From Thermodesulfobacteriota bacterium (GTDB lineage: Bacteria > Desulfobacterota_D > UBA1144 > Nemesobacterales > N074bin48): a stretch of DNA of 64,000 nt. Position numbers and translations under genes: made by a program. The notes beneath the pieces are model-generated. The model worked only from the letters and a program-made list of their open reading frames with translations. It ran no database searches and had not been told where the DNA came from. Shown here one piece after another: positions 27,801 through 61,250 of the stretch (the first letter of the stretch is position 1; each line of letters opens with the position of its first letter). The stretch spans positions 11,341 to 75,340 of the forward strand of contig JBFFSH010000001.1 of NCBI GenBank assembly GCA_041572575.1, in the 5' to 3' direction.

Positions 27801-28634
27801 AAAATCCAGGTTCAGTTTGAGTTTTTCGTTACTAAAATCAGTTACCTTTGTTCTGACAGAAAATAGTTTTTCACCCGAATTTTTAAATTCTCCGGACATG
27901 AATATATCAGCGCCATTAAAACCAAACTTTAATTCACCAATTTCAACTTCTTCCTTGCTGAGCTTAAGTGTGGATGAAGATAAATTGTTTATAATTATCT
28001 CATCCGGATCAATATTAATCCGGCCACTATGAAAGTTTATTTCAGCAGCAGCAGGGTTTGTTGCAAGTCTTACTGTAGAATTAAAATCGTTTATATCAAT
28101 AGTTCTTACTGTATCAGCTTGTTTATTAAAAATCGAAACCCTGGTATCTAAAATCTCAAAACTATTTATGGAAACAATCCAGCTAGAACTCTCTTTTTGT
28201 GTGAGTTGTTCATCCTCATTTTTAGGTTCTTTACGACTTAACCGGCTATAGTTCCAGATTCCGTCCTGGTTTTTGCTGAGTACTAGTTTAAGTCCATCAA
28301 TTTTAAAGCTGTCTACATTTATATGCCCCGCTGAAAAATCATTAATAATATTTAATGCACTTAATGGATATCCAAGAGTAATATTTCTAGCTTCCAGAAA
28401 TTTATTGTTATCAATTTCTAGTTCGGTGTCATTTATTACAATTCCATCTATTAAAGCAAAATCCACCTTGCCTATCTTTAACTGCTGTCCCATAGATTTG
28501 CTTACGGAGCTTTTTATAAGATCGACAATCTTATTTTGAACAAAACTCGTCTTAATAAGCAGAGATAATGAAAATATCCCTACAATTAGTAGAACCAGCA
28601 AAACTGAAAATATCTTTATTATTTTAGAACGCAT
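24828..28634 (-). CDS. tamB: Translocation and assembly module subunit TamB (AsmA/DUF490 family).
   Basis: 1268 aa. N-terminal signal-anchor, long beta-rich repetitive body, C-terminal DUF490-like end ...GGDIFFNFEY. Its start overlaps the tamA stop. Confidence 0.8.
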   Translation of the reverse strand: MRSKIIKIFSVLLVLLIVGIFSLSLLIKTSFVQNKIVDLIKSSVSKSMGQQLKIGKVDFALIDGIVINDTELEIDNNKFLEARNITLGYPLSALNIINDFSAGHINVDSFKIDGLKLVLSKNQDGIWNYSRLSRKEPKNEDEQLTQKESSSWIVSINSFEILDTRVSIFNKQADTVRTIDINDFNSTVRLATNPAAAEINFHSGRINIDPDEIIINNLSSSTLKLSKEEVEIGELKFGFNGADIFMSGEFKNSGEKLFSVRTKVTDFSNEKLKLNLDFKGEGDFTTTDDINGKFSIDIDNSQYLENKFSFDAGDISIKNSVLNMKNATLDGDAGKAEIGIDTDLKNIFDKDKNNEFFAVLKLSDFDYSRLSKVPNIDTEIPADIEKIASALNAELQISGFFNASENFDLKTDIRKFILIGEAGDANLGGVLNISDSLIVADITGSTDKLDIGYLLNKKKYNSSINSKINIDASLPTNFSISGLKGSSQIDILKSRIFKNEIKSGAIRAKFSPNKIENVSVKLLSDFVNINASGNAINDKLDFSYDIKSENLDFISKIKDDLGMHGSADIKGQIKGTLESPIIEYALKLSDFKVKKLIADKGNATGAISFDEGISTINSRGQFNRLKYNDRPFNSLEYDVSTKNGRVIGDILLTENDNNNYNLEFKIADLELEKNIEFSKITLNFGDTEFKNNDTLVVGYSNGIRISGLDLGSNGSSIKGVFNISASDELKGDIKFINFELQNISELINVQEAFSGVVNGHLDINGNTKAPRLNSQLSIDNLKYREFASSKLNLNTKYSNKKFDINLTSDLQDNNKLNLSGFINTDLNFSNEKSSGVTSMDLSLFSQNLNLSPFSAFIDTLDDINGVIDLDLKIKGTPKAPRVFGNTAIKDTEFKLKQLKNKITIDNGNMKFDGDKAVFNEFMISSGDGTAGISGDFNLSDLSFKAQGEFDRFRINPKRIKTDLSGNLQLSGNGKDISAAGDATLNKTRITITQQKKQQVSEIKFVDQETNENDEIVIKDEEKGSYFKDHMALDLNVTIPKNSWVRGRGANIELKGKLKIDKEYKDEPLITGNISTVRGTYKIFGKLFKIQEGNVNFPAIKDLNPLLDITALYNVSDVDVFVGIGGDVKNPEIKLTSNPSLQETDIVSYLIFGTSSDKLGSGERSALGSAATGLAGGVALNQLKGVLGDNVSPDVLSFGSGESGPELEVGKYLNDDIYFAYERKSSSDSGSSIPTNTVKVEYRLFDFLSVGSDVGSEQSGGDIFFNFEY

Positions 28635-30438
28635 GACCTATGCTTAAGAAAAATTGAAATCTGTCAATCTCTGGCTCAGGATTTAAAGTATAACCAAAAT
28701 CAACCCTCAAAGGGCCTATTATAGTATCAAACCTAAGACCTGTGCCCACTGCATATTTTATTTCTCCGAAATCGAAATCAAATTCGTCGGGGAATACATT
28801 TCCATAATCAAAAAACAGCACTCCTCCAAGTTTTTTATAGATCGGAAATCTTCCTTCAAGATTACCAAGTAAAAGTGTGTTTCCACCCACGGGCTCACTA
28901 CCACTGTCAAGCGGGCCAAGCTCCTGAAAAGGGAACCCCCTCATAGTTGTGCTGCCGCCTGTAAAAAATCTCTTAAATATAGGAACATCCAGACTATCGG
29001 TACTGCCAAACGGCTGTATCAACCCTATATCCAGTCTTTTTGCAAAAACAATGTTTTTATATTCTTTATATCCGATAAATTCAAGAACGCTTGTAATAAA
29101 ATCTTCATCAGACCCTAAAACCCCTAGAGACGACTCGATATTAAAACTCAGACTCCTTCCACTTGTGGGGTTAAGCGGGTTATCAACTGTGCTGTGGTCT
29201 AGCCCGGCACTTAAAAAAGTAAGGAAATAACCATCATCCTCTACAAAATCAGAAGTAGAACCGGATATTTCCGATAATCGAGACAGCTGGATATCAAAAG
29301 AACTGTAAAAATTTATATTATTGTATATTTTCTTCTTAATCTTATTAGAAAAATTGAGGCTCTCTGAGGTGTAGCTTGGAAAATCATCCCTTGAAGTAGA
29401 AAGAGTAGAGATAAAATCCATGTCTCTGTCAAATAAATAAGGCTGAATTAGTGAAGCGCTTAAGCGCTGAGTAAGAAACGAAAATTTGCCTGAAACCTCT
29501 AAGTCTCTTGCACCACCGAACAGATTTTTATGGTTCCATATAATCTGTCCTCGGAAAAGGTCTTCGGTGCCAAAACCTACTCCAACCTTTACACTCCCAA
29601 GTTTCCGTTGTTCAACACTTATTACGGTATCAACGACTTTTTGCTCCTCATTAAATACAGGATCAATCACAACGGATTTGAAATACCCAAGACCAAATAT
29701 TGCAAGCCTTGTCCTGTCGAGCATTGTTAGAGAATATTCATCACCCGACTTATATAAAATCTCTCTCGATATAATCTTATCGTCTATGTCCTTATTACCC
29801 TTAATGGATACAGTGCCAAAGTAATATTTATACCCCCTGTTAACAGAAATATCTACCTTAGCCCATTTATCTTCCCTGTTTACAAGCGCCTCGGATTTTA
29901 TTTCAGCAAAAGGATAGCCTTTATTTGAAAAATAGTTCGCAATAATATTCTTTGTTTTTTGATACTCTCTTTGCGAGAAATCTTCATTGGACATTACAGT
30001 AGCTGCATCCAAAAGCTCGGCATACTCTTCATCCAATAGTTTTGGCTTCACATCCAGTACAAAATCTTTTACAACCGTTTTTTCGCCACGATCTATATCT
30101 ATTATCACATCAACAAAGTCATCATTTTTTTGCTCAATTAGATATTCTATTTTTACATCATAAAATCCATATTCTTTATATAAATTAGATATCCGTATTA
30201 CATCTTCCTTTAATATTTCTTCGTCAAATACGGGTTTTTTCTTCCAGGGTAAAAACGATGGAAATTCTGTTGCCATATTCTCGGTAATCTCTTTTTTAGA
30301 TACAGCACCAATGTTATTTAATTTGATTTTGGAAATATATATTTCACCCGGCTCATCTTGAGAAAAAACAGGAAAAGGACACAAGAATATAGAGATACAA
30401 TATATTAGTAAGAAATATTTATATGATAAATTCATCAC
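28624..30438 (-). CDS. tamA: Omp85-family outer-membrane protein TamA/BamA-like (POTRA domains plus beta-barrel).
   Basis: Signal peptide, POTRA-like repeats, C-terminal beta-barrel ending in an aromatic residue (...SIGHAF). Directly upstream of tamB. Confidence 0.75.
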   Translation of the reverse strand: MMNLSYKYFLLIYCISIFLCPFPVFSQDEPGEIYISKIKLNNIGAVSKKEITENMATEFPSFLPWKKKPVFDEEILKEDVIRISNLYKEYGFYDVKIEYLIEQKNDDFVDVIIDIDRGEKTVVKDFVLDVKPKLLDEEYAELLDAATVMSNEDFSQREYQKTKNIIANYFSNKGYPFAEIKSEALVNREDKWAKVDISVNRGYKYYFGTVSIKGNKDIDDKIISREILYKSGDEYSLTMLDRTRLAIFGLGYFKSVVIDPVFNEEQKVVDTVISVEQRKLGSVKVGVGFGTEDLFRGQIIWNHKNLFGGARDLEVSGKFSFLTQRLSASLIQPYLFDRDMDFISTLSTSRDDFPSYTSESLNFSNKIKKKIYNNINFYSSFDIQLSRLSEISGSTSDFVEDDGYFLTFLSAGLDHSTVDNPLNPTSGRSLSFNIESSLGVLGSDEDFITSVLEFIGYKEYKNIVFAKRLDIGLIQPFGSTDSLDVPIFKRFFTGGSTTMRGFPFQELGPLDSGSEPVGGNTLLLGNLEGRFPIYKKLGGVLFFDYGNVFPDEFDFDFGEIKYAVGTGLRFDTIIGPLRVDFGYTLNPEPEIDRFQFFLSIGHAF

Positions 30439-30574: not shown

Positions 30575-31309
30575 CTAATCAAACTGCCTTATTTGAGGGA
30601 AAGCAAAGAATTTTTCAAGATCAAGCAATATTAATAGTTCATCATTAAATTCACAAACTCCATGTAAAAAAGGAGCAATTTTATCATCTACCTTTGCTTC
30701 GGTATTCATAATTGAATCCTTTGGAACATTATATATCTGATTTACCTGATCAACTATAATAGCAGAGCTTATTTCTTCATCCAAAGAACGTATAACAAGC
30801 ATTCTTCCCGAATCAAATCTATCCATCTTGGGAATACCCAAATATGTGCCAAGATCAACAACCGAAACAATCTCCCCTCTAATGTTAGTTACACCTCTTA
30901 CCCATACGGGAAGATTTGGTACCGGGGTAACATTGCTGAGAGTTCCTATTTCCAGCACATTTAAAATAGGTATGCCATACATTTTATTTGACAGCGTAAA
31001 TACAATATACTTCTGCTCGTCTATATCCTCTGCCTGAGCTTCTTCTCCAAAGTCAGACATTATTACCTGCCCATAATTCTGCTGTATGGAAGAGTCTATT
31101 TCTGAAATCAGTTTGTCGAGTTCATCACTATCTGAAGATAAATCACTACTGCTACTGCTGCCAATAGATTCTGTAGTCTGTCTGATATTTGCACTCTGAA
31201 AAACACTATTTTGGAGCTCTATGTCTTCGAGATGAAGGTCTTTGGACATAGTTTCTGAAGAGGTGCTTTCACTATTGCTGTTATTATTGGAATCTTTATT
31301 ATCAGACAT
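30575..31309 (-). CDS. CheW-like domain protein with an about 90-aa Ser/Asp/Asn-rich acidic N-terminal extension.
   Basis: CheW core KYIVFTLSNKMYGIPILNVLEI...VWVRGVTNIRGEIVSVVDLGTYLG. Confidence 0.75.
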   Translation of the reverse strand: MSDNKDSNNNSNSESTSSETMSKDLHLEDIELQNSVFQSANIRQTTESIGSSSSSDLSSDSDELDKLISEIDSSIQQNYGQVIMSDFGEEAQAEDIDEQKYIVFTLSNKMYGIPILNVLEIGTLSNVTPVPNLPVWVRGVTNIRGEIVSVVDLGTYLGIPKMDRFDSGRMLVIRSLDEEISSAIIVDQVNQIYNVPKDSIMNTEAKVDDKIAPFLHGVCEFNDELLILLDLEKFFAFPQIRQFD

Positions 31310-31356
31310 AATATTAGTTCTCCGTCTTTATATTATTATATAATTTAATGATTTGT

Positions 31357-31935
31357 TTAAAATTTAATCTTAGAAGCCATCTCTCTTAATTCATCTATAT
31401 GAATTAAATATATTTCCTGCCACTGCTTCTTTATTAAATCTGATCTAAAGCTCGATTCAAACAAACTGAAATAGGACTGAATGATATTTAGAAGAGCTTC
31501 TCGAATTTCATCAAAAATCGGCTGCCGGTCTGATGGATGACTAGCCCAGCCCTTAAATAAATTTATGACAGTATCAGGTGATAATCTATTTTCTTTCAGA
31601 TACAGCAGCTTTATATTTGGATAGTTTTCACTCTGCGATACTAAAAGCTTTTGCAGATAAGATGAATTAACCCTTAACTTTTTTTCGGCAAACCCTACAA
31701 CCTGATTTACCAGATCACACAGTAGTCTTAATCCTTCCTTAGGATCTTTTATTATCTTGTCTTCGGTAAGCTTTACAGTAATAACCTGATTATTTGATAG
31801 AAGCAGCATTAGTTGTTCTTCCAAAGCTGTATCCTGCTGTAACGCTACTTTTGAACTATCATCAGCCATGTTATTTTCACCCTGATTAATACCGCTATTT
31901 TCTTCTGCTTTATTAAATGGCATTCTAAGCTTCAT
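31357..31935 (-). CDS. Hypothetical protein, 192 aa, middle gene of the MshEN-REC/CheW operon.
   Basis: ORF track. It abuts the upstream stop. The true start may be an internal Met (MADDSS). Confidence 0.5.
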   Translation of the reverse strand: MKLRMPFNKAEENSGINQGENNMADDSSKVALQQDTALEEQLMLLLSNNQVITVKLTEDKIIKDPKEGLRLLCDLVNQVVGFAEKKLRVNSSYLQKLLVSQSENYPNIKLLYLKENRLSPDTVINLFKGWASHPSDRQPIFDEIREALLNIIQSYFSLFESSFRSDLIKKQWQEIYLIHIDELREMASKIKF

Positions 31936-34029
31936 TTATGCTGTACCCGCAACACTTACACCCTGTTTTTTTATGGCACTCACAAGTGAGTTTGGTTCAA
32001 ATGGTTTAGTAATATAATCCGTAGCACCTACCAATTTACCCCTCATTTTATCAATGATTCCGTCTTTACCTGAAAGCATTATTACCGGTACTTCTTTTGT
32101 AAGCTCGTTACCCTTGATTATCTTGCAAAGTTGATACCCATCCATATGGGGCAAGTTAATATCTAGAAAGATAATATCAGGTATGAATTCATTTAACTTT
32201 GCTAACGCCTGCATTGCATTTGATGATACTTCTACCTGGTAACCGTGCCTGCTAAGAGTAACAGAAACTATTTTTTGTACAGTAGGGCTGTCATCAACCA
32301 CTAAAATTGTAGGTTTCGATACAGTATCTGCTGGTTGAGCATATTGATCCTGAACTGGAATAACCGGCTCATTTACCGGTGGTGGTGGAGGTGGTATGTC
32401 CGGCTCTACTTCCCTAAGCTCAGGCTTTGGAGGTTCAGCACTTACTGTTGTACCTACATGATTTCCATTACTGTCAATGGTCTTATTAAACGATTCAATA
32501 TTATCATAAGAAGAATCTTCATTTAGTGATCTTAAGTCGGTTTCATTATTTACAGGTGGGACAACATTTCCAATCTCACTCTCTTTCTGCCCGGGAATTT
32601 GGAAGAGGTCTTCCACTTCTTTACCGGGATCAGCAGATTGGGTAGGGGCTGTGGCCCCTGGTTGAGAATCAGCTGCATCAGGTGCTAAATCTGTTTCTGT
32701 ACCTGCACTTTCTGTCTGCATAGTGGGAATTGTAAAAACATCTTTGTTATCAGGAACTTCTATCTGATCAGTTATTTCTTCAGCTTCCAGGCTCAGTTCT
32801 ATTGTCTTATCATCATCCTCTTCACTTGCTGATTGGCTGCTTGAAAATACGTTTAACTCCGGGCTGCTATCTTGCGCTTGTGGAGGTACAGGTATGTTAA
32901 TTGGCTCAGATTTTTGTGATTCTACAGGCTGAAAACCAACTGTAGCCCCAGCCTGTTCTGCAGGAGCCTGAAATAGACTCTGTTCTCCACCTGCCGTACT
33001 AGCTGGTTCACTTTCAGTCTGTTCACTATGCGGCCGCGCATCTACTTCACGACTCTCAGCCGGCGGCTGAAAAAGATTACTCGAGCTATCAGAGCTTTGT
33101 AATGATATATTTTCAAAGCTGCTATCCGAACTCTGTTTTACCCCTCTTACATAATCATCATCTTTTGCAAATACATCAATTATTTCATTTTGATTTGGTT
33201 TTTCATCAGTTGCTTGTGGTTGAGGTTGTGGAGATTGACCGGGAAACTGAGGCTCATCAATTTGTGGTGGTTGAGCTTGAGATTCAGGCTCTGTAGTAAG
33301 CGATGAAGCTAGAGTATCTGCAGTTTCTGTTTTTTCTGATGATACCTGTGGAGACGCTGTAAAAACAGAATGATCTGTCTGTTGAGATTGTGATACTGGC
33401 GGCTCCGGATAGCTTTGTGGTTGCGTTTCAATTTGCGGCTCTGGCTCAGGTTGTGCTGGTTCGGACGGTGCTTGTGCAGCAACTTCAGGTTCAGGCTCTG
33501 ATGGTTGTACTATTTGTTGTTCCTCAGGTTTTTGAACAATAGTTTGTTCTTGTTCAGCTTTTTGCAATGGTTCAGGTTCTTGCTTTTGTACAACCTGTTC
33601 AGCATCAATGTTATGATGATTTACAAGCGCGCTTTTAATACTACTAAATTCTGCTATATATGGTTTTATATTGTGTCCTGTCAAAAATCTTAACTCATCA
33701 ATCAGTACAATATTTGTAGGATCAATCATTGCAACACTCAAGAATGCCCCTTCTAAATCAAATGGAATCAGGTTATTATCGACGGCCGTGTCCTGAGGGA
33801 TTAGCTTTATGACTGATGGCTCAATATTTATCGCTGAAAGGTCTACTCTGGGGAATTGATTGTCTATATTAGTAAGTTCAACAAGTTGAGACTCGGTAAT
33901 ATAACCTTTTCTAATTAATATTTCACCGAGTGATTTATTATTGTTCTTTTGCTCTTCTACAGCTTCTTTTAGGTTATCAAGAGATAAATAACCCTTTTCA
34001 ATAAACAGTTTGGCTAGTTTAACATTCAT
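31936..34029 (-). CDS. Multidomain signalling protein: N-terminal T2SS-E/PilB N-terminal (MshEN-like) domain, about 400-aa Pro/Gln/Glu/Ser-rich disordered linker, and C-terminal CheY-like receiver domain.
   Basis: The N-terminal KLAKLFIEKGYLSLDNLKEAVEEQ...SLGEILIRKGYITESQLVELTN...TNIVLIDELRFLTGHNI matches the PilB/GspE N-domain. The C-terminal ILVVDDSPTV...IIFLDINLPHMDG...VIMLSGKDG...ITKPF is a complete REC domain. Confidence 0.75.
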   Translation of the reverse strand: MNVKLAKLFIEKGYLSLDNLKEAVEEQKNNNKSLGEILIRKGYITESQLVELTNIDNQFPRVDLSAINIEPSVIKLIPQDTAVDNNLIPFDLEGAFLSVAMIDPTNIVLIDELRFLTGHNIKPYIAEFSSIKSALVNHHNIDAEQVVQKQEPEPLQKAEQEQTIVQKPEEQQIVQPSEPEPEVAAQAPSEPAQPEPEPQIETQPQSYPEPPVSQSQQTDHSVFTASPQVSSEKTETADTLASSLTTEPESQAQPPQIDEPQFPGQSPQPQPQATDEKPNQNEIIDVFAKDDDYVRGVKQSSDSSFENISLQSSDSSSNLFQPPAESREVDARPHSEQTESEPASTAGGEQSLFQAPAEQAGATVGFQPVESQKSEPINIPVPPQAQDSSPELNVFSSSQSASEEDDDKTIELSLEAEEITDQIEVPDNKDVFTIPTMQTESAGTETDLAPDAADSQPGATAPTQSADPGKEVEDLFQIPGQKESEIGNVVPPVNNETDLRSLNEDSSYDNIESFNKTIDSNGNHVGTTVSAEPPKPELREVEPDIPPPPPPVNEPVIPVQDQYAQPADTVSKPTILVVDDSPTVQKIVSVTLSRHGYQVEVSSNAMQALAKLNEFIPDIIFLDINLPHMDGYQLCKIIKGNELTKEVPVIMLSGKDGIIDKMRGKLVGATDYITKPFEPNSLVSAIKKQGVSVAGTA

Positions 34030-34422: not shown

Positions 34423-34827
<405 letters not shown>

Positions 34828-34881
34828 TAGATTATTACAGCATTTGAAAATAACTTTATAAATTACAAGGAGGAAGGTTAG

Positions 34882-36333
34882 ATGGCAAAATCTACCAAAG
34901 GCGGCGCTCAGAGTCCGCCAAACAATGCAAATGATGTTCTTAAGCTTGTAAAAGATGAGAACATTCAGATTATAGACTTTAGGTTTCTCGATTTTGTGGG
35001 GATGTGGCAGCATTTCAGTACACCCACACATGAATTGGACAAAGAAGCATTCGAAGAAGGACTGGGTTTTGATGGATCAAGCATCAGAGGTTGGCAGTCA
35101 ATTCACGCAAGCGATATGCTAATGATACCGGATCCCAAAACTGCCAGAATTGATCCATTCACTAATATACCAACTCTCGCATTAATATGTGATATTGTAG
35201 ATCCAATAACAAGAGAGCCTTATTCAAGAGACCCGAGAAACATAGCCAAAAAAGCTGTTTCTTACCTCCAGAGCACAGGAATTGCTGACACAGCTTATTT
35301 TGGACCTGAGCTGGAATTCTTTATTTTAGACGATGTTAGATATGACCAGACAGCAAACACCGGATACTATTTTGTAGATTCAGTAGAAGGTATCTGGAAC
35401 TCAGGCACGGATGAAGGACCAAACCTTGGTTATAAACCAAGACATAAAGAAGGTTATTTCCCCTGCCCTCCTACAGACAGCTATCAGGACCTAAGATCCG
35501 AAATGGTTTTAGAGATGGAAAATCTTGGTATAGCAGTCGAAGCTCATCACCACGAAGTATCAACAGCGGGTCAGGCTGAGATAGACATGCGTTTTTCCCC
35601 TCTTGTTGATATGGGCGACAATATGATGTGGTATAAATATATTTGCAGAAATGTAGCAAGAAAATATGGTAAAACAGTTACATTTATGCCAAAGGTTATA
35701 TTCGAAGATAATGGTTCAGGAATGCACATACATCAGTCACTCTGGAAAAAAGGCAAACCACTTTTTGCAGGAAACAGCTACGCAGGAATGAGCGAAATGG
35801 CAATGCATTATATTGGTGGAATACTAAAACATGCTAAAGCTATCTGTGCTTTTTCCAATCCAACAACAAACTCTTACAGAAGACTTGTACCAGGGTTTGA
35901 AGCTCCTGTTAACCTTGCATATTCGGCAAGAAACAGAAGTGCTGCAGTAAGAATTCCTATGTACTCTCCAAGTCCTAAAGCTAAAAGACTTGAAACAAGA
36001 TTCCCAGACCCATCAGCAAACGGATACCTTACATTCTCTGCAATGCTTATGGCTGGCCTTGATGGAATCGAGAACAAAATTGATCCGGGTGATCCTCTCG
36101 ATAAAGACATTTACTCACTTGGACCTGAGGAACTGGAGGGTATCCCTTATGTTCCAGGTTCGCTCGAAGAAGCTCTTAACTCACTTAAAGAAGATCATGA
36201 ATTCCTTACAAAAGGTGACACATTCACAGATGATGTAGTTGAAACATGGATTGACTACAAGATGGAAAATGAAGTTAATCCTGTGAAGCTAAGACCAGTA
36301 CCTCATGAGTTCATGCTTTACTTTGATGTGTAA
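34882..36333 (+). CDS. glnA: Glutamine synthetase type I.
   Basis: 483 aa. GS beta-grasp and catalytic domains ([32 protein letters not shown]). Confidence 0.9.
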
Positions 36334-36362
36334 TTAATTAGAGAATAAAGTTTTTAGATAAC

Positions 36363-36394
36363 AAAAAAAGGCGGCCAAACGGTCGCCTTTTTTT
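36363..36394. terminator. Bidirectional Rho-independent terminator between the convergent glnA and nuoL genes.
   Basis: A7-GGCGGCC-aaac-GGTCGCC-T7. 7-bp GC-rich stem with one G-U pair, flanked by A and T runs. Confidence 0.75.
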
Positions 36395-36549
36395 ATGCCT
36401 AATTCAAATTTTCTATTATCCGTTAGCAGTCTGCAAAAATCAGAAGTAGCAAAAGTTACACAACAAAAGGTTAAAATACCACTATGATGAACTAACCCCT
36501 AATATAGATCAGATGATCATGCAGGAAAAATTATTGATGTACTTATTGC

Positions 36550-38511
36550 TTAGAAAGTTGAAAATATTATATATAGAATAAGAATAAGACCCGCAGTCAT
36601 AACAGCTGCATAGGCTCTTACAAGACCAAACTGAAACTTCCTTACAAAAGTTGATAGGCATGAGAAAAAGCCTGCGATTCTGTTTACAAGCCCATCAACA
36701 ATATTTGAGTCAAACCAAAATGACATCTTTGATGACTCTTTAAACCCGTCTATAAATGTATGCTCATAAACCTCGTCCATATACCATTTGGAGTTGGAAG
36801 CGTTGAACAGAAAGCCAAAGTCCTCATTTGCTGTAATCTTGCTAAGATGTTTAGGCCTATAAATATAGAAATAATAGGCAAGCCCAATTCCCAAAACAGC
36901 TGCAACAATGGAAAGTATAAGTAGATCCATGTGGCTAAAGAAGTGATGACTAACTGCTGATGCATGATGCTGTTCAAGAGGTATAGCTGCCCAGATAAAC
37001 TCTTTAAACTTGTTTACATGGTGCAGTCCAAACATCTCACCAATAAAATCCGGCACGCCAACATAACCGCCTATTACTGATAGAACAGCCAGTACAATCA
37101 AAGGAATTGTCATAGTACTTGGAGATTCATGAAGCTTTTTCATTATATTAGCAGGAACCCTGCTCTTTCCTTCAAAAGTTAGGAAATATAGGCGCATCAT
37201 ATAAAGTGCAGTGAGCATTGCCGTAACAAGTGCTACTGCCCAGTGAATCGCAAATCCTTTTTCGTACAGTTCACCAAGTATCTGATCTTTTGAAAAGAAG
37301 CCTGAGAGAAGAGGTAGGCCTGAAATTGCTAAAGTACCTACAAGAAAAGTCTTGGAAGTTATAGGAAGATATTTCCGAAGCCCCCCCATCTTTCTTACAT
37401 CCTGCTCATCAGACATTGCATGTATTACGCTACCAGCACCAAGAAATAAAAGTGCTTTAAAGAATGCGTGGGTTACTAAGTGAAACATACCAGCGGCATA
37501 GGCGCCGATTCCCACACCCATGAACATAAAACCAAGCTGGCTCACGGTAGAATATGCCAGTACCTTTTTAATATCGGTCTGGCTAAGGGCAATCGTTGCA
37601 GCAAAAAACGCAGTAAATACAGCAATTGTTACAACTATGAATTGCGCTACAGGAGAAGCACTGAAAAATACGGCACACCTTGTAACCATATAAACCCCTG
37701 CAGTTACCATGGTTGCCGCATGAATAAGAGCACTAACCGGTGTTGGTCCTGCCATGGCATCTGGAAGCCACACATAGAGTGGGAACTGTGCCGATTTACC
37801 AACAGCTCCTACAAAAAGCAGAAGCGCTATTGCTGTGATTGTTATAGCTGGGATATTATTTAAAATTGCCTGACTTGAAGCCTGAGAAAAAACGTCTGCA
37901 TAACTAAGAGAGCCAAAAGTTATGAAAATAAGAAATATCGCTATGAGAAAACCAAAGTCACCTATTCTGTTTACTATAAATGCCTTTCTTCCGGCAAGGG
38001 CCTTCTGATCATCATCATACCAAAAACCAATTAACAGATAAGAAGCAAGCCCAACTCCTTCCCAGCCTACAAACATGAGCGGGAAGTTATTACCGAGTAC
38101 AAGAACCAGCATGAAGAAAACAAATAGGTTTAGGTAAGTAAAATATCTGGCGTATGATTTATCATGGCTCATATACCCAATCGAATAGACATGAATCAAA
38201 AACCCAACCCAAGTTATTACTAGAGTCATAATTGCTGAAATATTATCAAAAAGAAAACCAAACTTTATATCCAGCTCACCAGATACTATCCAGGAAAATG
38301 AGGTTTCGACTATGCCGGTTAATCCTTCCGACCCAACAAGAGTATAGAACATATATGTAGCAATAAGGGCAGAAAAGAGGATCGAGCTGCAGGCAATAAC
38401 ACTAACAATGCTTTTTTCAGATTTATGGTCTTGTTTTATTAAACCTGTAGTAAAAAGCAGGCCGTTTATAGCAGCTCCAATAAGTGGAAGTAATATAATT
38501 AAAAATAGCAT
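36550..38511 (-). CDS. nuoL: NADH-quinone oxidoreductase subunit L.
   Basis: 653 aa polytopic antiporter-like subunit. Follows nuoK. Confidence 0.85.
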   Translation of the reverse strand: MLFLIILLPLIGAAINGLLFTTGLIKQDHKSEKSIVSVIACSSILFSALIATYMFYTLVGSEGLTGIVETSFSWIVSGELDIKFGFLFDNISAIMTLVITWVGFLIHVYSIGYMSHDKSYARYFTYLNLFVFFMLVLVLGNNFPLMFVGWEGVGLASYLLIGFWYDDDQKALAGRKAFIVNRIGDFGFLIAIFLIFITFGSLSYADVFSQASSQAILNNIPAITITAIALLLFVGAVGKSAQFPLYVWLPDAMAGPTPVSALIHAATMVTAGVYMVTRCAVFFSASPVAQFIVVTIAVFTAFFAATIALSQTDIKKVLAYSTVSQLGFMFMGVGIGAYAAGMFHLVTHAFFKALLFLGAGSVIHAMSDEQDVRKMGGLRKYLPITSKTFLVGTLAISGLPLLSGFFSKDQILGELYEKGFAIHWAVALVTAMLTALYMMRLYFLTFEGKSRVPANIMKKLHESPSTMTIPLIVLAVLSVIGGYVGVPDFIGEMFGLHHVNKFKEFIWAAIPLEQHHASAVSHHFFSHMDLLILSIVAAVLGIGLAYYFYIYRPKHLSKITANEDFGFLFNASNSKWYMDEVYEHTFIDGFKESSKMSFWFDSNIVDGLVNRIAGFFSCLSTFVRKFQFGLVRAYAAVMTAGLILILYIIFSTF

Positions 38512-54026: not shown

Positions 54027-55460
54027 CTACTTAGCTGCCTCAGCCGTAAGACCATCACTATCTCCTTCACCATCAATTCCATGTTTAACAAGTCTGTATC
54101 TTATTGACCGAAGAGTAATACCTAGTTTTTTAGCGGCTTCGGTTTTATTTCCACCTGTAGACTCCAATGCTTTAAGCAGCATCTTCTTTTCTATATTATC
54201 AAGCATTGCGTCCAGGTTAGTATCAGACGACAAGTCATCCCCCCCTATCTCCACATAGTCTTTACCGCTTACAAGAGGCGGTAGGGTTTCGTGTCTTATT
54301 ATATTAGTTGACTCAAGTGCAATAGAGCGTGCAATAATATTTTCTAACTCTCTTACATTTCCCGGATAACTATAATTTTCCAGGATCTCAAGCGCTTTTG
54401 GTGAGATACCTCTTATCTCTTTTCCCATTTCCTCAGAATATTTATTCACAAAACTCATCGCAAGTGGTGAAATATCTTCTCTTCTCTCTCTAAGTGGGGG
54501 AAGATTGATCTTAATGACGTTTAACCTGTAAAACAGATCTTCTCTGAACCTGCCTTCGGCAATTTCATCCTCTAAGCTTTTATTTGTAGCAGCAATCACC
54601 CTAAGATCAATCGGTGTTGCGTCAACAGTTCCAAGGGATCTTATCATTTTCTCTTCTATTGCCCTTAGAATCTTTACCTGTAAATGTATTGGCAGATCGG
54701 CAATTTCGTCTAAAAATATTGTACCTTTATGAGCCTCTTCAAATAATCCTTTTTTATCCCTTACTGCACCTGTAAAAGAGCCTTTCTTGTATCCAAACAA
54801 CTCACTCTCAATCAATGTTTCAGGAATTGCTCCACAGTTAACTGGTACAAACGATCCCTCACTTCTGTTTCCTGCGTAATGTATAGCTCTTGCTACAAGC
54901 TCCTTACCCGAACCGCTTTCTCCTGTAATCAAAACATTTACATTCAGTTCGGCAACCCTCTTAATGAGTTCAAAAACCTGCAGGATTGCAGGGCTTCTTC
55001 CAATTATATTTCCAAATCCAAACTTCGTTTCCAGTTCACGTTTGAGTCTTGTATTTTCACTAACAAGCCTTTTCTTTTCCAGAGCTTTTTTTATTACAAG
55101 CTTTATTTCATCTATTTTAAATGGTTTTGTAATATAATCGTATGCCCCGTGTTTCATGGCCTCTATTGCTGATTCGTGCGATGCAAAAGCTGTAATCATA
55201 ATAACTGTGGTATCAGGGGCTTTTTCATTTAGTTTTTTAAGCAGATCGATGCCGTCCATTGTCGGCATCTGCACATCGATTATAGCAAGATCAAAAATCT
55301 GAGAATTTATTTTATCCTCGGCATGTTTTCCATCGCCGGCTGTTACAACACTATATCCATCTTTTTGCAGCATTATTTCCAGGAACTCCCTCATCCCCGG
55401 TTCATCATCTACTACAATAATTCTTCCGTTGTTAGCTGCCCCCATTGCAAATCTCCTCAA
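54027..55460 (-). CDS. pilR: Sigma-54-dependent response regulator (NtrC family). PilR-like by context.
   Basis: REC domain, AAA+ sigma-54 activator domain (GESGSGKE, GAFTGA-like, ESELFGY), and C-terminal Fis-type HTH. Adjacent to pilS and pilBTC. Confidence 0.8.
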   Translation of the reverse strand: MRRFAMGAANNGRIIVVDDEPGMREFLEIMLQKDGYSVVTAGDGKHAEDKINSQIFDLAIIDVQMPTMDGIDLLKKLNEKAPDTTVIMITAFASHESAIEAMKHGAYDYITKPFKIDEIKLVIKKALEKKRLVSENTRLKRELETKFGFGNIIGRSPAILQVFELIKRVAELNVNVLITGESGSGKELVARAIHYAGNRSEGSFVPVNCGAIPETLIESELFGYKKGSFTGAVRDKKGLFEEAHKGTIFLDEIADLPIHLQVKILRAIEEKMIRSLGTVDATPIDLRVIAATNKSLEDEIAEGRFREDLFYRLNVIKINLPPLRERREDISPLAMSFVNKYSEEMGKEIRGISPKALEILENYSYPGNVRELENIIARSIALESTNIIRHETLPPLVSGKDYVEIGGDDLSSDTNLDAMLDNIEKKMLLKALESTGGNKTEAAKKLGITLRSIRYRLVKHGIDGEGDSDGLTAEAAK

Positions 55461-55468
55461 AATGCTTG

Positions 55469-57097
55469 TTATTCATCATTTAATGTTTCTTTTCCCATTG
55501 TAATTATAAATGTAGATCCCTCATTTACAGCACTTACGACATCAATCTTGCCATTATAACCCTCTATTACCTTTTGCACAATCACAAGGCCCAGTCCTGT
55601 ACCCGAATTTTTGGTGGTAAAAAAAGGATCAAATATACTTGAAATATTTTTCTGACTAATACCGCAACCAGTATCAGAAATTTTTACTATCACATTTTCT
55701 TTTTCCACCAAGGCTTCTATTCTAATTGTCCCCTGACCCGATATAGACTGCATTGAATTTAGAAGCAGGTTCCAGACAGATTGTTTTAGTCTGTAGCTGT
55801 CACCCTTTACAAATATTTCACTTTGTATCTGCCTTTCTAAATTAATATCCGATCTCTTTATAGTTTTAGAGAACGTATCTAACGTTTCATTCAAGATTAC
55901 AGACATATCAACCGGCAGACCTGTTTTTAAAATTGGATTCGTTAATATCGAGAAATCTTCTACGATCAGATTCATTCTCTCGATCTCCTGTGTTGCTACG
56001 TTCACAAGTCTTAGATTATCTGAGCTGCTCTCCACCTCACTGCTAAGAATTTCTATCGCTCCGCTAATAGCAGATAGTGGGTTTCGGATTTCATGAGCCA
56101 GGCCCGAGGCAAGCTGTCCAAGTATTGCCAGTTTTTCTGTGTTTCTTAGTTTATCCTCCAGGATTTTTATTTCTGTAAGGTCCTGAAATATCAGAATATA
56201 CCCCTGTGTTTGATCATCGTCTCCCTGCAGTAAAGATGAAGAAAATCCCAGAGTAATCTTTTCCCCCTCACTTGTGGTATATAATATTTGTTCCCGTTTT
56301 GTCGAAATAAGATTATCTAAATCTAATGCTGGGAAAAATTCATAAATATCCTTGTTTATTATCTGCTCATCAGACTGCAGGTCCAATATGTTTTTGCTCA
56401 TAGGGTTGGCAGATATTATGTTTCCTTTTAGATCGAGTGTTATGACTCCGCTATCGAGGCTTTTAAGAATATTATCGTTAATATTTTGTAATATACTAAG
56501 ACTCTTCTTACTCTGACCAAGTTCTTTTCTTACAATCCTGGTTTTCTCTGATAAATAGCCACTAAGAATTGCAGCAAGTAAAAAACCTGCAAGGTTGAAG
56601 TATGTACTTACCAGACTTTGCTGATCTATTTGCATACTTGCCTGTAATCTCAATTGATATGAATCATCGGAGTGAAATATCCTTGGTTTTGATGCAACTA
56701 TTACAAGTAATATTATTGCAAGAAAAAATGATAAAGCGTAACTTACCAATCTGTTGGAAAAAATAATATTTGTATAAATTATTATAAGAGCAAATAGGAA
56801 TATGAATGGACTACCCAGTCCCCCTGTTACTACTATAATAATGGATGAAAGTAATACATCTAAAAAAATCTGAAAGGAGTCGATAAGAGTTTTGTATCTA
56901 GATATTACATCCTTAAATGACAGATATACAAGGCTGAATATATATATTACAGCTACTACAAACAGCAGATATAGCGCAACTCTAGTTCTACCGTTTAGGA
57001 AATATATAAGGGCAGAAGAACCGAAAAGTAGGGTCGCAACTAATATTCGGATCAGTACTATTCTATTGATAGTCGAATCTAACCAATTAAAAAACAT
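55469..57097 (-). CDS. pilS: Membrane sensor histidine kinase (PAS, HisKA, HATPase). PilS-like by context.
   Basis: Multiple N-terminal TM helices. H-box LASGLAHEIRNPL. G-boxes GTGLGL. Confidence 0.75.
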   Translation of the reverse strand: MFFNWLDSTINRIVLIRILVATLLFGSSALIYFLNGRTRVALYLLFVVAVIYIFSLVYLSFKDVISRYKTLIDSFQIFLDVLLSSIIIVVTGGLGSPFIFLFALIIIYTNIIFSNRLVSYALSFFLAIILLVIVASKPRIFHSDDSYQLRLQASMQIDQQSLVSTYFNLAGFLLAAILSGYLSEKTRIVRKELGQSKKSLSILQNINDNILKSLDSGVITLDLKGNIISANPMSKNILDLQSDEQIINKDIYEFFPALDLDNLISTKREQILYTTSEGEKITLGFSSSLLQGDDDQTQGYILIFQDLTEIKILEDKLRNTEKLAILGQLASGLAHEIRNPLSAISGAIEILSSEVESSSDNLRLVNVATQEIERMNLIVEDFSILTNPILKTGLPVDMSVILNETLDTFSKTIKRSDINLERQIQSEIFVKGDSYRLKQSVWNLLLNSMQSISGQGTIRIEALVEKENVIVKISDTGCGISQKNISSIFDPFFTTKNSGTGLGLVIVQKVIEGYNGKIDVVSAVNEGSTFIITMGKETLNDE

Positions 57098-57144: not shown

Positions 57145-58359
57145 CTATCCAGCCATAGTTGCAACTAGTTTAAACATTGGCAGATACATTGCTACTACTA
57201 TTATACCCACTGTACAACCTAAAAAGAATATCATTGCCGGTTCGAGAGCGGACATAAGTGCTGCAACAGCAACATCTACCTCATCTTCATAGAAGTCCGC
57301 AATTTTATTAAGCATGTCGTCCAGATTACCAGTTTGCTCACCTACAGAGATCATCTGAACAACCATAGGAGGGAATATCTTAGGTCTTGTAGCAAGGGGT
57401 TCAGCAAGAAGCTGTCCTTCGCTTACACTCTTTCTTGCATCCATTATTGCCTCTTCAACCACTACATTTCCAGATGCTTTTGCGGTAATTTCCAGTCCAT
57501 CAAGAATAGGTAAACCACCGGCGGTTAGTGTAGCCAATGTACGGCAGAACCTTGCTATTACAGTTTTTAATAATAATGTTCCAATAAGCCAGAGTTTTAG
57601 TAAAAATCCATCAAATAACCTCCTGGCTTTTAAGGAGCGTCGATATAGAGCCGAAACACCTATAACCATCAGAACAATTGCAATTAATATATATATTATA
57701 TTACTTTTAAGCCAGTCACTTATGTTTACAATAGTCTGAGTTAGAGACGGAAGCGTTGTGCCCAGATCCTTAAAAAGTTCAGCAAATGTAGGAACCACGA
57801 ATATCATGATTACAGCAAGCACAATAATTGCTACAGAAATAACAACAGCAGGATAAATCATCGCACCCTTCACCCTTCTCTTAATACCTTCTATTTTTTC
57901 CAGGTATGTAGCAAGTCTTTGTAAAACAACGTCTAAAACACCACCTGATTCTCCGGCTCTGGCTAGATTTGAGTATAAGGTATCGAAAGCCTTAGGATGT
58001 TTTTCCAAAGCATCGGCAAAGGTCGCACCTCCTTCAACATCTTCCTTTACTCTTCCAATTATCTCTTTAAATGCAGCATTTGGCTGCTGTTCTCTAATTA
58101 CCTCAAGTGATCTTACAAGAGGAAGACCCGCATCTATCATCGTAGACAACTGCCTTGTAAAAACAACCAAATCTCGGGTTGGAACACCGCCAAAAGCAAT
58201 ATTCATATTTAATATACTGCTTTTCTCTTTTATCTTATCAGGAATAGGCTGAATCTGCATACCCCTTAATCGTGCCAGTACTGCAGATCTGCTTGGGGCT
58301 TCCATTTCACCTTTTTCTATTCTTCCTCTAAGTCTTCCCTGCCAAGTATAAACAGCCAT
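57145..58359 (-). CDS. pilC: Type IV pilus or T2SS inner-membrane platform protein (GspF/PilC family).
   Basis: 404 aa with duplicated GspF domains and 3 TM segments. Confidence 0.85.
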   Translation of the reverse strand: MAVYTWQGRLRGRIEKGEMEAPSRSAVLARLRGMQIQPIPDKIKEKSSILNMNIAFGGVPTRDLVVFTRQLSTMIDAGLPLVRSLEVIREQQPNAAFKEIIGRVKEDVEGGATFADALEKHPKAFDTLYSNLARAGESGGVLDVVLQRLATYLEKIEGIKRRVKGAMIYPAVVISVAIIVLAVIMIFVVPTFAELFKDLGTTLPSLTQTIVNISDWLKSNIIYILIAIVLMVIGVSALYRRSLKARRLFDGFLLKLWLIGTLLLKTVIARFCRTLATLTAGGLPILDGLEITAKASGNVVVEEAIMDARKSVSEGQLLAEPLATRPKIFPPMVVQMISVGEQTGNLDDMLNKIADFYEDEVDVAVAALMSALEPAMIFFLGCTVGIIVVAMYLPMFKLVATMAG

Positions 58360-58378: not shown

Positions 58379-59479
58379 TTATCTTCTGATTGCTCTCTTG
58401 TTTCCCTGTGCTGAATTTTGCTCATCCAGAATTCTTTTAATCTCATCTGGTTCCTGACTCTTCGTTAACGTATCTTCGTATGTAATTTGTTTTCTCAAAT
58501 ATAAATCAACCAGGGATTGGTTGAGCGTCTGCATATTCCATTTTTCCTGTCCAATCTGCTGCTGTGAATAAATCTGATGCACTTTATCTTCTCTTATTAG
58601 ATTTCTGATTGCCGGGTTCGGAACCAGAATCTCAACCCCTAATACCCTTCCTCCTCCAACACGTGGTATTAATGTTTGGCATAAGATACCCTCTAAGACA
58701 AAAGACAGCTGTGCTCTTACCTGGGGTTGTTCGTGGGGTGGAAATACATCAATTACACGGTTAATTGTTTGAACAGCCGTATTTGTATGGAGCGTGGCAA
58801 ATGTTAAATGTCCGGTTTCAGACAGAGTAAGAGCAATCTTGATAGTCTCAAGGTCTCTCATCTCACCAATCAGGATTACATCAGGGTCTTCTCTAAGTAC
58901 ACTTCTAAGTGCGTTGTGAAAGCTTTTTGTATCACTTCCCACTTCTCTTTGGTTTACCAGACAGTTCTTATGACTAAACATGTATTCTATAGGATCTTCG
59001 ATCGTAACAATATGCTCTCTTCGTTCCTGATTAATCTGGTCTATCATTGCAGCAAGAGTCGTAGTTTTTCCTGACCCCGTAGGTCCGGTCACTAGAATTA
59101 AACCCCTTGGTTTTTTAATAAGATCATGAACAACAGGCGGATGCCCCAGTTCATTTAAATCTCTAATTTTGTACGGAATAAGCCTAAAAGCACCTGCTAC
59201 TACACCCCTTTGCATATAGATATTGCCTCTAAACCTTCCAAGCTGCTGCATACCAAAAGAAAAGTCAAGTTCCCAGTTTTCTTCAAACTTATGCTTTTGC
59301 ATATCTGTTAATACGCTATAGCAAAGGTCTTTAGTTTCTGGTGGAGTAAGGGGGGGATGCTTAATAGGAACAAGCTTACCATCAACTCTTATTACAGGAG
59401 GTGAGTTGGTAGTAATGTGTAAATCTGAAGCTCCGTTATCAACCATTACCTTTAACAGTTGACTAAGTTGAATGCCCAT
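58379..59479 (-). CDS. pilT: Twitching-motility (retraction) ATPase PilT.
   Basis: 366 aa. Walker A GPTGSGKTTT. PilT-type N-terminus. Confidence 0.85.
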   Translation of the reverse strand: MGIQLSQLLKVMVDNGASDLHITTNSPPVIRVDGKLVPIKHPPLTPPETKDLCYSVLTDMQKHKFEENWELDFSFGMQQLGRFRGNIYMQRGVVAGAFRLIPYKIRDLNELGHPPVVHDLIKKPRGLILVTGPTGSGKTTTLAAMIDQINQERREHIVTIEDPIEYMFSHKNCLVNQREVGSDTKSFHNALRSVLREDPDVILIGEMRDLETIKIALTLSETGHLTFATLHTNTAVQTINRVIDVFPPHEQPQVRAQLSFVLEGILCQTLIPRVGGGRVLGVEILVPNPAIRNLIREDKVHQIYSQQQIGQEKWNMQTLNQSLVDLYLRKQITYEDTLTKSQEPDEIKRILDEQNSAQGNKRAIRR

Positions 59480-59495
59480 AAATTATCCTCCCAAA

Positions 59496-61250
59496 TCAAT
59501 CATCCTGAGATGTATTTCTAACTACCTCTTCAATTGTTGTTATACCTTGCTTGAGTTTTAGAAGTGCACTTTGTCTAAGAGTATGCATTCCCTGTCTTAT
59601 AGCTTCTCTTTTAAGTTCGAGAGCCGACGCACCGCTTAATATAAATTCTTTGATTTCTTCAGTAATTCTTAATACTTCATAGATTGCGATTCTTCCCTTA
59701 TATCCTGTACCCATACAGGTCTTGCAATTTTCTCCGCTTCCCCTGTAAATCACATAATCTGACACTGCTTTAGGTGAAACCCCAAGATCTATGAGTACCT
59801 GTGGAGATACATCCACAACCTCTTGACAATCCGGGCATACTTTTCTTACAAGTCTTTGAGCAAGTATTGCATTGAGTGAAGCTGTAAGCAAGAATGGCTC
59901 AACACCCATGTTGAGAAGTCTTGTAATAGTTGAAGGGGCATCATTTGTATGTAAGGTAGATAGAACAAGGTGACCGGTAAGAGCAGCTTTAATGGATATT
60001 TCTGCAGTTTCGTAGTCTCTTATTTCACCTACTAATATAATATCTGGATCCTGCCTGAGGAACGATCTTAATGCAGACGAGAAATTAAGCCCGATCGCCT
60101 CATGCATCTGCACCTGATTTACTCCGGACAAACTGTATTCTACCGGGTCTTCTGCTGTGGAAATGTTTACATCTTCTCTGTTTAGCTCCATCAGTCCAGA
60201 ATACAGTGTTGTTGTTTTACCACTACCTGTAGGACCCGTAATTAAAACCATACCGAAAGGCTGATAAATTGATTCTCTAAATAGTTTAAGTTCATCTTCA
60301 TTAAAACCGAGTTGTGTCAGGTCAAGCTTCAGGGAATCCTGATCAAGAAGCCTCATAACCACTTTTTCTCCGGTTATTGTTGGAAGACAGGAAACACGAT
60401 ATTCCATGGTTCTGCCCTTACCCGCCTTTATCTTTATCCTTCCATCCTGTGGAAGCCTTCTTTCAGCAATATCGAGATTTGCCATAACTTTAATTCTTGA
60501 TGAAACAGGATTTTTAAGCTGTGGCGGAGGTTTAAGAATATCATACAGTACTCCGTCAATTCTGAGTCTTACCCTATAATCAGTCTCATAAGGTTCTATA
60601 TGAATATCACTGGCTCCTCTTCTTATTGATTCTAATAGTATGTGGTTTACCAGTCTTATTACCGGTGCTTCCTCAGAAGCCTCTTTGAGATCTCCGAGGT
60701 CAAGATCTTCTACTGTAGCAATATCTAGTACAAAGTCTTCTAAATCGCCAAAAAGTTTTCCGACTTCTTCCTGACTCTTTTCTGCTTCAACTTTCTTTTG
60801 CCATTCTTCCTGAGAACCATAGTGCTTCTCAATTGCTGTCTTAATCGATCTTTCCGAGGCTACAACTACTTCAATATTCTGACCCGTAGCAAATTTTAAA
60901 TCATCAATGGCAAAAATGTTTGAGGGATCTGCCATGGCAACAACCAGAGTAGATCCTGATCTGTCTATGGGAACCAGTTTGTGTTTGAGCGCTGAATCCC
61001 TTGGTACCAGGTCCAGGGCTTCTTCTGATACATCGAACTGCTCAAGGTTGATTGCAGGTACTGCATATTGTTTACTCAAATATGCAACAAGCTGGTTTTC
61101 ATCTATGTATCCAAGGTTTAGCAGAGTCTCACCAAGCTTCCTACCCGAGTGCTTTTGCTCCTGGATTGCGCTTTTTAACTGATCAAGATTTATAACATCT
61201 TCTTTGATCAGAATATCGCCCATCTTGGCGCCTGCTTTTTGCTGCTTCAT
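59496..61250 (-). CDS. pilB: Type IV pilus assembly ATPase PilB with an N-terminal MshEN/T2SSE_N domain.
   Basis: 584 aa. N-terminal tandem 24-residue MshEN-type motifs (KMGDILIKEDVINLDQLKSAIQEQ and KLGETLLNLGYIDENQLVAYLSKQ). Walker A GPTGSGKTTT. Tetracysteine CPDC...CKTC. Confidence 0.85.
   Translation of the reverse strand: MKQQKAGAKMGDILIKEDVINLDQLKSAIQEQKHSGRKLGETLLNLGYIDENQLVAYLSKQYAVPAINLEQFDVSEEALDLVPRDSALKHKLVPIDRSGSTLVVAMADPSNIFAIDDLKFATGQNIEVVVASERSIKTAIEKHYGSQEEWQKKVEAEKSQEEVGKLFGDLEDFVLDIATVEDLDLGDLKEASEEAPVIRLVNHILLESIRRGASDIHIEPYETDYRVRLRIDGVLYDILKPPPQLKNPVSSRIKVMANLDIAERRLPQDGRIKIKAGKGRTMEYRVSCLPTITGEKVVMRLLDQDSLKLDLTQLGFNEDELKLFRESIYQPFGMVLITGPTGSGKTTTLYSGLMELNREDVNISTAEDPVEYSLSGVNQVQMHEAIGLNFSSALRSFLRQDPDIILVGEIRDYETAEISIKAALTGHLVLSTLHTNDAPSTITRLLNMGVEPFLLTASLNAILAQRLVRKVCPDCQEVVDVSPQVLIDLGVSPKAVSDYVIYRGSGENCKTCMGTGYKGRIAIYEVLRITEEIKEFILSGASALELKREAIRQGMHTLRQSALLKLKQGITTIEEVVRNTSQDD

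Follow-up and report, generated by a model that had tools for sequence, protein, structure and literature searches.

What can a protein do that joins a copy of the N-terminal domain of PilB, the type IV pilus extension motor, to a phospho-receiver domain, and why is it encoded together with a CheW-like adaptor? The question is raised by a three-gene operon in a 64,000-nucleotide stretch of Thermodesulfobacteriota bacterium DNA (GenBank assembly GCA_041572575.1, contig JBFFSH010000001.1, positions 11,341 to 75,340 of the forward strand; the whole stretch is referred to as the window), which encodes an MshEN-linker-receiver (REC) protein, a 192-residue protein that we call X, and a CheW-like protein. 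Because the closest outside relatives of REC, X and CheW sit in full chemosensory clusters, we lean, at slightly better than even confidence, towards reading the operon as a reduced, rewired descendant of a type IV pilus chemosensory cluster of the PatA/PilG kind, the output of which is a paralog of the PilB N-terminus. The initial annotation of this locus had proposed an adaptor between cyclic di-GMP (c-di-GMP), chemosensory arrays and the pilus motor; our analysis retains the chemosensory and pilus link and argues against the c-di-GMP input. The operon comprises the following genes and parts (aa, amino acids):

34029..31936, minus strand: gene 1, MshEN-linker-REC protein (697 aa).
33610..34029, minus strand: PilB-type MshEN/N1 domain, aa 1–140 of the 697-aa protein, from Pfam, PDB and NCBIfam matches.
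32314..33609, minus strand: acidic Pro/Glu/Ser/Gln-rich disordered linker of ~430 aa (aa 141–572), from composition.
31936..32313, minus strand: C-terminal REC domain, aa 573–697 and stop codon, with a signature resembling the PatA/PilG type (IMLSGKDGIIDKMRGKLVGATDYITKPF).
31935..31357, minus strand: gene 2, X (192 aa), of a family without a Pfam model.
31309..30575, minus strand: gene 3, CheW-like protein (244 aa).
31025..31309, minus strand: Ser/Asp/Asn-rich N-terminal tail, aa 1–95 of the CheW-like protein, ending in a conserved helix motif, DELDKLISEIDSSIQ.
30575..31024, minus strand: CheW domain, aa 96–244 and stop codon, with a conserved C-terminal ...IRQFD tail.

The three genes are co-oriented on the minus strand of this marine Dadabacteria genome, and open reading frames (ORFs) and Pfam agree on the run of MshEN-linker-REC protein, unknown 192-aa protein and CheW first described. 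The TAA of gene 1 and the ATG of the X gene are adjacent, with no gap, as had been noted; a GGAG lies 5′ of the CheW gene start, and a scan for promoters and terminators found no enrichment compared with shuffled sequences. Relatives of the gene-1 protein, named Candidatus Dadabacteria or Thermodesulfobacteriota, form a small MshEN-linker-REC family of ~17 clusters, members of which carry the automatic Joint Genome Institute (JGI) name 'PilG'. Exact-sequence look-ups of the 697-aa protein and of P0002 gave no match.

The relatives that carry our reading came from metagenomes. In a scan with alignment A4, the patterns lay in the PATAN part, so most of the 80 loci represented other PATAN proteins. 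Clusters encoding a fused PATAN-X protein were recovered at L013/L016, L014 and L017–L021, and all six full-length PATAN-X loci start with [N-domain-REC][PATAN-X][CheY]. The full order is [TPR-REC, ~335 aa][PATAN-X][CheY][ParA-like][CheW with an N-terminal extension (CheW-ext)][dCache-HAMP methyl-accepting chemotaxis protein (MCP)][CheA with two Hpt domains]; the ParA-like gene is missing in L021, L014 holds the first three genes only, and the contigs of L019 and L020 are short and end after CheY and ParA. Beyond their own family, the three window proteins are closest to the REC, X and CheW of these clusters: the window REC is 52–60% identical to that of the TPR-REC proteins heading the clusters, X is 36% identical to PATAN-X, and CheW is 36–38% identical to its cluster counterpart, with an RQF[DE] C-terminal tail in common. 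A segment, MLSGKDGxxDKxRGxxxGAxDYITKPF, is common to the window REC and the TPR-REC proteins and looser in a PATAN-REC protein, and a tail motif just before the CheW domain, LDxLIxxIDxx, is common to the window CheW and the CheW-ext proteins of L013, L015, L017, L018 and L021; in L015, a GC-rich contig, a standalone X is followed by a gene of the CheW-ext type. The window operon therefore matches genes 1, 2 and 5 of the full cluster type, with the same order of REC, X and CheW and common CheW-ext motifs. It differs in having MshEN in place of TPR and an X without PATAN; the CheY, ParA, MCP and CheA of the full clusters are absent from the locus, and the full-cluster organisms have GC contents of 50–74%, compared with 36% for the window.

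A further N-terminal CheW-ext motif, KALGxDPLDALEDIEW, was seen only where a ParA-like gene precedes (L013, L017 and L018; not L021, not the window). ParC and ParP of Vibrio are an array-positioning pair, and the extended CheW beside a ParA-like ATPase in the full clusters is reminiscent of them; the window, in contrast, has no ParA-like gene, and its CheW lacks the extra N-terminal motif.

Each end of the 697-aa protein is a recognizable domain, as is the CheW-like protein, in line with the initial annotation. At the N-terminus, Pfam MshEN (PF05157) matches aa 59–138 (E = 2e-16) and the NCBIfam PilB model covers aa 4–171, while gap-free alignments run from aa 2 to 139 against Myxococcus xanthus PilB (3jc8; E = 2e-24) and from aa 4 to 110 against residues 9–115 of Vibrio cholerae MshEN (5htl; offset 5, E = 7e-11), so that the T2SS-E/PilB N-terminal domain claimed for this protein is complete, its four-helix MshEN_N part and its T2SSE_N1 part both being recognizable. 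Scores against Geobacter PilB and Thermus PilF were similar to those against M. xanthus PilB, the domain is 38% identical to the N-terminus of the window's own PilB, and it matches type IVa PilB proteins better than GspE. At the C-terminus, Pfam Response_reg matches aa 575–687 (E = 4e-28), and the equivalents of D12, D13, D57, T87, Y106 and K109 in Escherichia coli CheY are D, D, D, S, Y and K, which supplies the acidic pair, phospho-acceptor Asp, Ser and Lys of an intact CheY-like receiver. The REC domain is ~85–99% conserved within the MshEN-linker-REC family, and its five catalytic residues are strictly conserved across the marine family. The best tblastn result among eight CheA, MCP, hybrid-kinase and PatA-type queries was the PATAN-REC protein P0020 (E = 3e-24, 35% identical); an NCBIfam scan of the REC protein gave no match to a curated PilG or PatA model, and PATAN/DUF4388 (PF14332) did not match the 697-aa protein at E ≤ 0.1. 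In the third gene product, Pfam CheW lies at aa 101–235 (E = 4e-29; 101 bits against a cut-off of 23.5), behind the Ser/Asp-rich tail, and the domain aligns full-length to E. coli CheW (2ho9, residues 13–153), including the GVTN(L/I)RG segment. CheW is 80% identical in L001 and L005, compared with 74% for X and 68–70% for the adjacent Omp85, and is thus the most conserved of the three proteins.

The 192-aa protein, first listed as unknown, indeed has no library match, yet it belongs to a widespread family tied to PATAN and chemosensory clusters. Pfam and NCBIfam scans of X gave no match, and even at E ≤ 5, Pfam gave no recurrent family among 19 diverse members of the X family. A profile of Dadabacteria X sequences, searched against 1.84 billion representatives at E ≤ 1e-3, matched 237 proteins; the best 150 of these comprised DUF4388/PATAN fused to X (~280 aa; 51 proteins), X alone (43), X with another N-terminal extension (nine) and multi-GAF kinases in which the match is confined to a 45-residue stretch (~47). 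One of the nine extended forms, P0099, is MshEN-linker-REC-X in a single 726-aa chain. With the family defined by profile A2, the window X matches a full-length helical domain of ~170 residues ending in ...I[KQR]F, and Trp130 and Arg137 are invariant over the broad alignment. AlphaFold2 (AF2) predicts a confident, all-helical bundle for X (predicted local distance difference test score 85), a model with no meaningful relative in the PDB. A scan of a genome collection with the X alignment returned one locus, L005, and gives no measure of taxonomic breadth. X is a widespread, hitherto undescribed domain family, physically linked to PilG-type receivers, PATAN and CheW/MCP/CheA clusters.

Two candidate identities for X were discarded. 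An inter-domain part of PatA was ruled out by the lack of similarity between X and P0020. For a CheC/CheX- or CheZ-like phosphatase, D35xxxE39 is conserved on the long first helix, but there is neither an E-x2-N motif nor a fold match, and a phosphatase role is kept solely as speculation. Separately, a segment of X at aa 105–150 (NLFKGWASHPSDRQPIFDEI) resembles LExQTATAEILKVIASSPSDVQPVFDAI, a repeated linker/GAF-start motif of multi-GAF histidine kinases; matches to such kinases (P0106, P0136 and others) mostly vanish with a broader X profile, and the likeness may reflect remote homology or convergence.

Comparison across lineages separates the constant from the variable parts of the operon. 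The order [MshEN-REC][X][CheW][Omp85][TamB] downstream of nuoJKL-glnA-glnB is kept in L001–L003 and L005, and the marine family has an intact REC, X and an intact, highly conserved CheW. In L004, REC is intact and cheW is disrupted by frameshifts, by a stop codon and by a deletion of ~58 aa; L006–L009 have no CheW and a pseudo-receiver (D57→E, D13→N/S and Y106→N/H; residues from L006, L007 and L009); and in L010–L012 REC and X are fused, again with no CheW. In four lineages, MshEN-REC and X stay together at this nuoJKL-glnA-glnB location. Because CheW varies across this series, the conserved core is MshEN-REC plus X, and the co-encoding with CheW that the initial annotation emphasized holds for L001–L003 and L005, not for L006–L012, from which CheW is absent, nor for the L004 pseudogene. 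In this small lineage sample, the presence of CheW tracks a phosphorylatable receiver. At L004 8318–8968, the cheW-like gene runs through three frames with an in-frame stop, and its deletion removes part of the domain core, while REC, X and Omp85 are intact; L004 is the most divergent family member, and its cheW is either a true pseudogene or an assembly fault. The nuoJ-nuoK-nuoL/glnA-glnB block (window 34489–38511), which is divergent from the adjacent MshEN-REC gene, is kept in all lineages from L001 to L012, including those with other genes downstream; this adjacency could reflect phylogenetic inertia or regulation in common with nitrogen status.

The N1/MshEN domain of PilB is thought to dock the ATPase at the pilus base. 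PATAN is the output domain of cyanobacterial PatA-type regulators and suffices for output; its binding partners are PilC and the N-terminus of PilB1. The alpha-clip, an insertion in PATAN, resembles the beginning of PilB N1, and competition for a common partner has been put forward (Han et al., preprint). The docking site of PilB is a socket in PilM for which motors compete, and contacts between N1 and PilM have been inferred from homologues in type II secretion systems (T2SS) (PMC11656802). Given the PATAN analogy and the PilM socket, a receiver-tethered copy of PilB N1/MshEN could occupy or bridge these docking partners. We propose that REC would be phosphorylated, in this lineage probably by CheA reached through the co-encoded CheW, and that phosphorylation would alter the engagement by REC of X, its putative conserved partner; the two are linked by translational coupling in the window and by fusion in a related lineage (P0099). 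The REC–X state would determine if the docking partners of PilB, be they the PilM stator, PilC or PilB itself, are occupied by the PilB-like N-domain, and this occupancy would raise or lower pilus extension, or position extension in the cell. The receiver state would thus be sensed by X as partner, and CheW would connect receiver and kinase. The probable target machine of the operon is a pil block ~20–27 kb away in the window:

61250..59496, minus strand: pilB, Pfam T2SSE and MshEN.
59479..58379, minus strand: pilT, Pfam T2SSE.
58359..57145, minus strand: pilC, Pfam T2SSF.
57097..55469, minus strand: PAS histidine kinase gene (pilS), Pfam PAS/HisKA/HATPase_c.
55460..54027, minus strand: sigma54 response regulator gene (pilR), Pfam REC/Sigma54_activat/HTH_8.

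The pilB gene is the full-length, MshEN-bearing copy already recognized in the initial annotation. No pilin gene comes after the block; the ORF that does, on the other strand (53530–54009), encodes a bifunctional-nuclease-domain protein, and no pilM, pilN, pilO, pilP or pilQ was seen among window ORFs of at least 150 aa.

Several observations weigh against a reduced pilus chemosensory module. The lack of a nearby CheA or MCP stated at the outset extends across the whole 64 kb: neither CheA, MCP nor ParA was found by tblastn with reference sequences or by Pfam scans of every window ORF of at least 150 aa. Pelagic Dadabacteria are reported to be without the motility and chemotaxis functions seen in a hydrothermal clade (PMC8115339), and the supplements of that paper hold no cheA, cheW or pilG entries. 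On account of the window and of this report, the phosphodonor may be other than CheA. The operon has no pil gene next to it, and neither do the sampled PATAN-X clusters, tblastn with PilB, PilT and PilC against the PATAN-X loci finding no adjacent pilus genes; the pilus link is drawn from domain homology and analogy. L004 has a cheW pseudogene despite its intact REC. X has no recognizable fold relative, and an AF2 model of REC and X concatenated, built from a shallow unpaired alignment, showed no confident docking (predicted template modelling score 0.57).

Could the N-domain instead be a working c-di-GMP receptor, one that would let the protein combine c-di-GMP and phosphorylation signals and pass them on to chemosensory arrays and the pilus motor? 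The fold is a complete MshEN, and its two motifs are arranged with the exact spacing of 24, 5 and 24 residues, in register with MshE residues 9–61:

aa 4–27: motif I (KLAKLFIEKGYLSLDNLKEAVEEQ).
aa 28–32: spacer between the motifs, 5 residues.
aa 33–56: motif II (SLGEILIRKGYITESQLVELTNID).

The gap-free alignments to 3jc8 and 5htl put both segments where the initial annotation placed them, although the second had been quoted with 22 residues and in full ends in ...TNID. Also in favour of a receptor, the equivalents of L10, G18, L25, Q32, L39, G40, G47 and L54 are retained, as is L29 (as V). The residues that differ in the 5htl register (R9→K, G11→A, R38→S, L58→T and Q61→D) point the other way. 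We scored both halves against the relaxed consensus of Wang et al. (2016), [RKPN]hGxxhhxx[GAS]hhxxxxhxxxhxx[QNKRYWST], and both failed, motif I at position 3 (Ala for Gly11) and motif II at positions 1 (Ser, neither Arg nor Lys), 21 (Thr) and 24 (Asp); the fit to the MshEN c-di-GMP consensus that had been claimed is therefore not upheld. According to Wang et al. (2016), c-di-GMP no longer binds when G11 is substituted, and affinity falls more than 10-fold when a single hydrophobic residue is changed. Every member of the MshEN-linker-REC family carries the window protein's deviations unchanged, so the motif region is constrained yet non-canonical; such strong purifying selection on a deviant motif suggests that the pocket region matters, which favours a receptor. 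The relatives in L006, L007 and L009, in contrast, have lost both Gly3 positions, both Arg and both Gln, so c-di-GMP binding is not a conserved family trait, and the fused protein P0099 has neither Arg and no second Gln. In the window's PilB, where these residues are presumably used, they are maintained, motif II passing fully and motif I missing once (position 10, Asp at the turn Gly/Ala/Ser). A search of the window for a GGDEF motif found none, which is weak evidence against a receptor. Judged from these motifs, c-di-GMP is probably not an input of the operon; because imperfect motifs such as that of the response regulator Bd2402 can still bind the nucleotide (Wang et al., 2016), we keep the receptor as an improbable alternative and do not discount it further. 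Nor is the fusion of MshEN to a receiver new as an architecture, as had been supposed: Supplementary Table 4 of Wang et al. (2016) lists 'MshEN - REC' (Geobacter lovleyi Glov_2262; Deltaproteobacteria, Deinococcus-Thermus), and the same authors list 'REC - MshEN_N - UNK' (Bdellovibrio Bd2402).

We judge equally improbable a relic or scaffold, in which CheA and MCP were lost in a streamlined lineage and the trio forms a phosphotransfer-free hub that localizes or sequesters pilus components. The binding would fall to the multivalent acidic linker, X and the CheW domain. The low-complexity, Pro/Gln/Ser/Glu-rich linker of ~400 aa described initially is borne out by composition (aa ~146–572: P 58, E 53, S 49 and Q 48 of 427 residues), with a net charge of −63 and 18% hydrophobic residues; a search of its DNA for tandem repeats found none. 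Linker length among relatives ranges from ~190 to ~455 aa, and the conservation profile shows two islands, at aa ~406–420 (DDKTIELSLEAEEIT) and aa ~496–525 (ETDLRSLNEDSSYDNIESFNKTIDS). A hydrophobic-F-[QKST]-x-P motif occurs in three to six copies (LFQPP, LFQAP, VFTIP, LFQIP) in the CheW-bearing marine family and not in CheW-less relatives, a pattern chosen post hoc; with that qualification, this restriction agrees with a scaffold, as do the absence of CheA and MCP from the 64 kb, the reporting of chemotaxis only for another, hydrothermal Dadabacteria clade (PMC8115339), the relatives with a pseudo-receiver and no CheW, and the phosphorylation independence often described in the literature for orphan PatA-type regulators. 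Against it stand the strict conservation of the five catalytic REC residues in the marine family and a CheW domain that is complete and highly conserved, which is unexpected if its canonical partners are gone.

A little less probable again is that X is an unrecognized core part of a distinct pilus-directed chemosensory class, sensing the PilG-type receiver, for example, as its partner or phosphatase, and that the Dadabacteria trio has been reduced to a CheA-independent form, with the N-domain a decoy under receiver control that would compete with PilB at the pilus base and CheW re-used as a scaffold. Least probable by far is a target other than the pilus (type II secretion, exopolysaccharide or the adjacent TamA/TamB outer-membrane assembly), for which the varied partners of MshEN, including T2SS ATPases and glycosyltransferases (Wang et al., 2016), and, in the marine family, the co-oriented TamA-like Omp85 and TamB genes that begin 136 bp further downstream speak, and against which count the loss of TamAB adjacency in L006–L012 while MshEN-REC and X persist, the best matches of the N-domain to type IVa PilB rather than GspE, and the occurrence in homologous clusters of PATAN, a binder of the pilus motor.

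The TamA-like Omp85 (604 aa, POTRA and Omp85) and TamB (1268 aa) genes, at 24828–30438 on the minus strand, overlap by 11 bp, and the first starts 136 bp after the CheW gene, an adjacency limited to the marine family. Elsewhere in the window, 4701–5606 on the minus strand encodes a 301-aa protein with a Tll0287-like sensor (PF11845) and HAMP that ends right after HAMP; it has no output domain and no same-strand downstream partner, and may be a truncated or split receptor.

The broad domain family that X defines, for which Pfam has no model, gains a testable role from its physical ties to PilG-type receivers, PATAN and CheW/MCP/CheA clusters. The operon also constitutes a natural experiment for the published idea that PATAN and the PilB N-terminus have a partner at the pilus base in common, or compete for one, with the PilB N-domain itself placed on a receiver. 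Full cluster, trio with CheW, pseudo-receiver pair and single fused chain form a graded series that is useful for studying how a chemosensory module is dismantled in streamlined genomes. The domain combination being already catalogued and the c-di-GMP idea weak, what is of most use here is that the X family and its cluster type are now defined.

Among known systems, the Pil-Chp system of Pseudomonas aeruginosa (PilG, PilH, PilI, PilJ and ChpA) likewise combines a REC protein with a CheW-like adaptor, which there govern where and when PilB acts. PilG of that system, however, is a single-domain REC encoded with pilH-pilI-pilJ-chpA that acts through FimL, FimX and ChpA, whereas the window has a three-part 697-aa protein and, with pilJ and chpA absent, no MCP or CheA. 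The catalogued MshEN-REC protein Glov_2262 has the same domain combination; unlike the catalogued form, the window protein has motifs that fail the relaxed consensus, and its long linker, X and CheW are absent from the description of Wang et al. (2016). Bd2402 differs in domain order and content. Compared with the cyanobacterial PatA-type regulators (PixG, PixE and PilG of Synechocystis; HmpA of Nostoc), the N-domain is a complete MshEN/N1 rather than DUF4388, an acidic linker of ~430 aa separates the domains, and the next gene encodes X rather than CheY, in a locus without MCP or CheA. The window protein nevertheless resembles them in being a regulator of two parts: a REC at the C-terminus, apparently similar in sequence character (35% identity to P0020), and at the N-terminus a putative output domain that does not bind DNA and has ties to the pilus extension motor. 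As in their loci, its gene comes first, and a CheW is encoded in the same locus.

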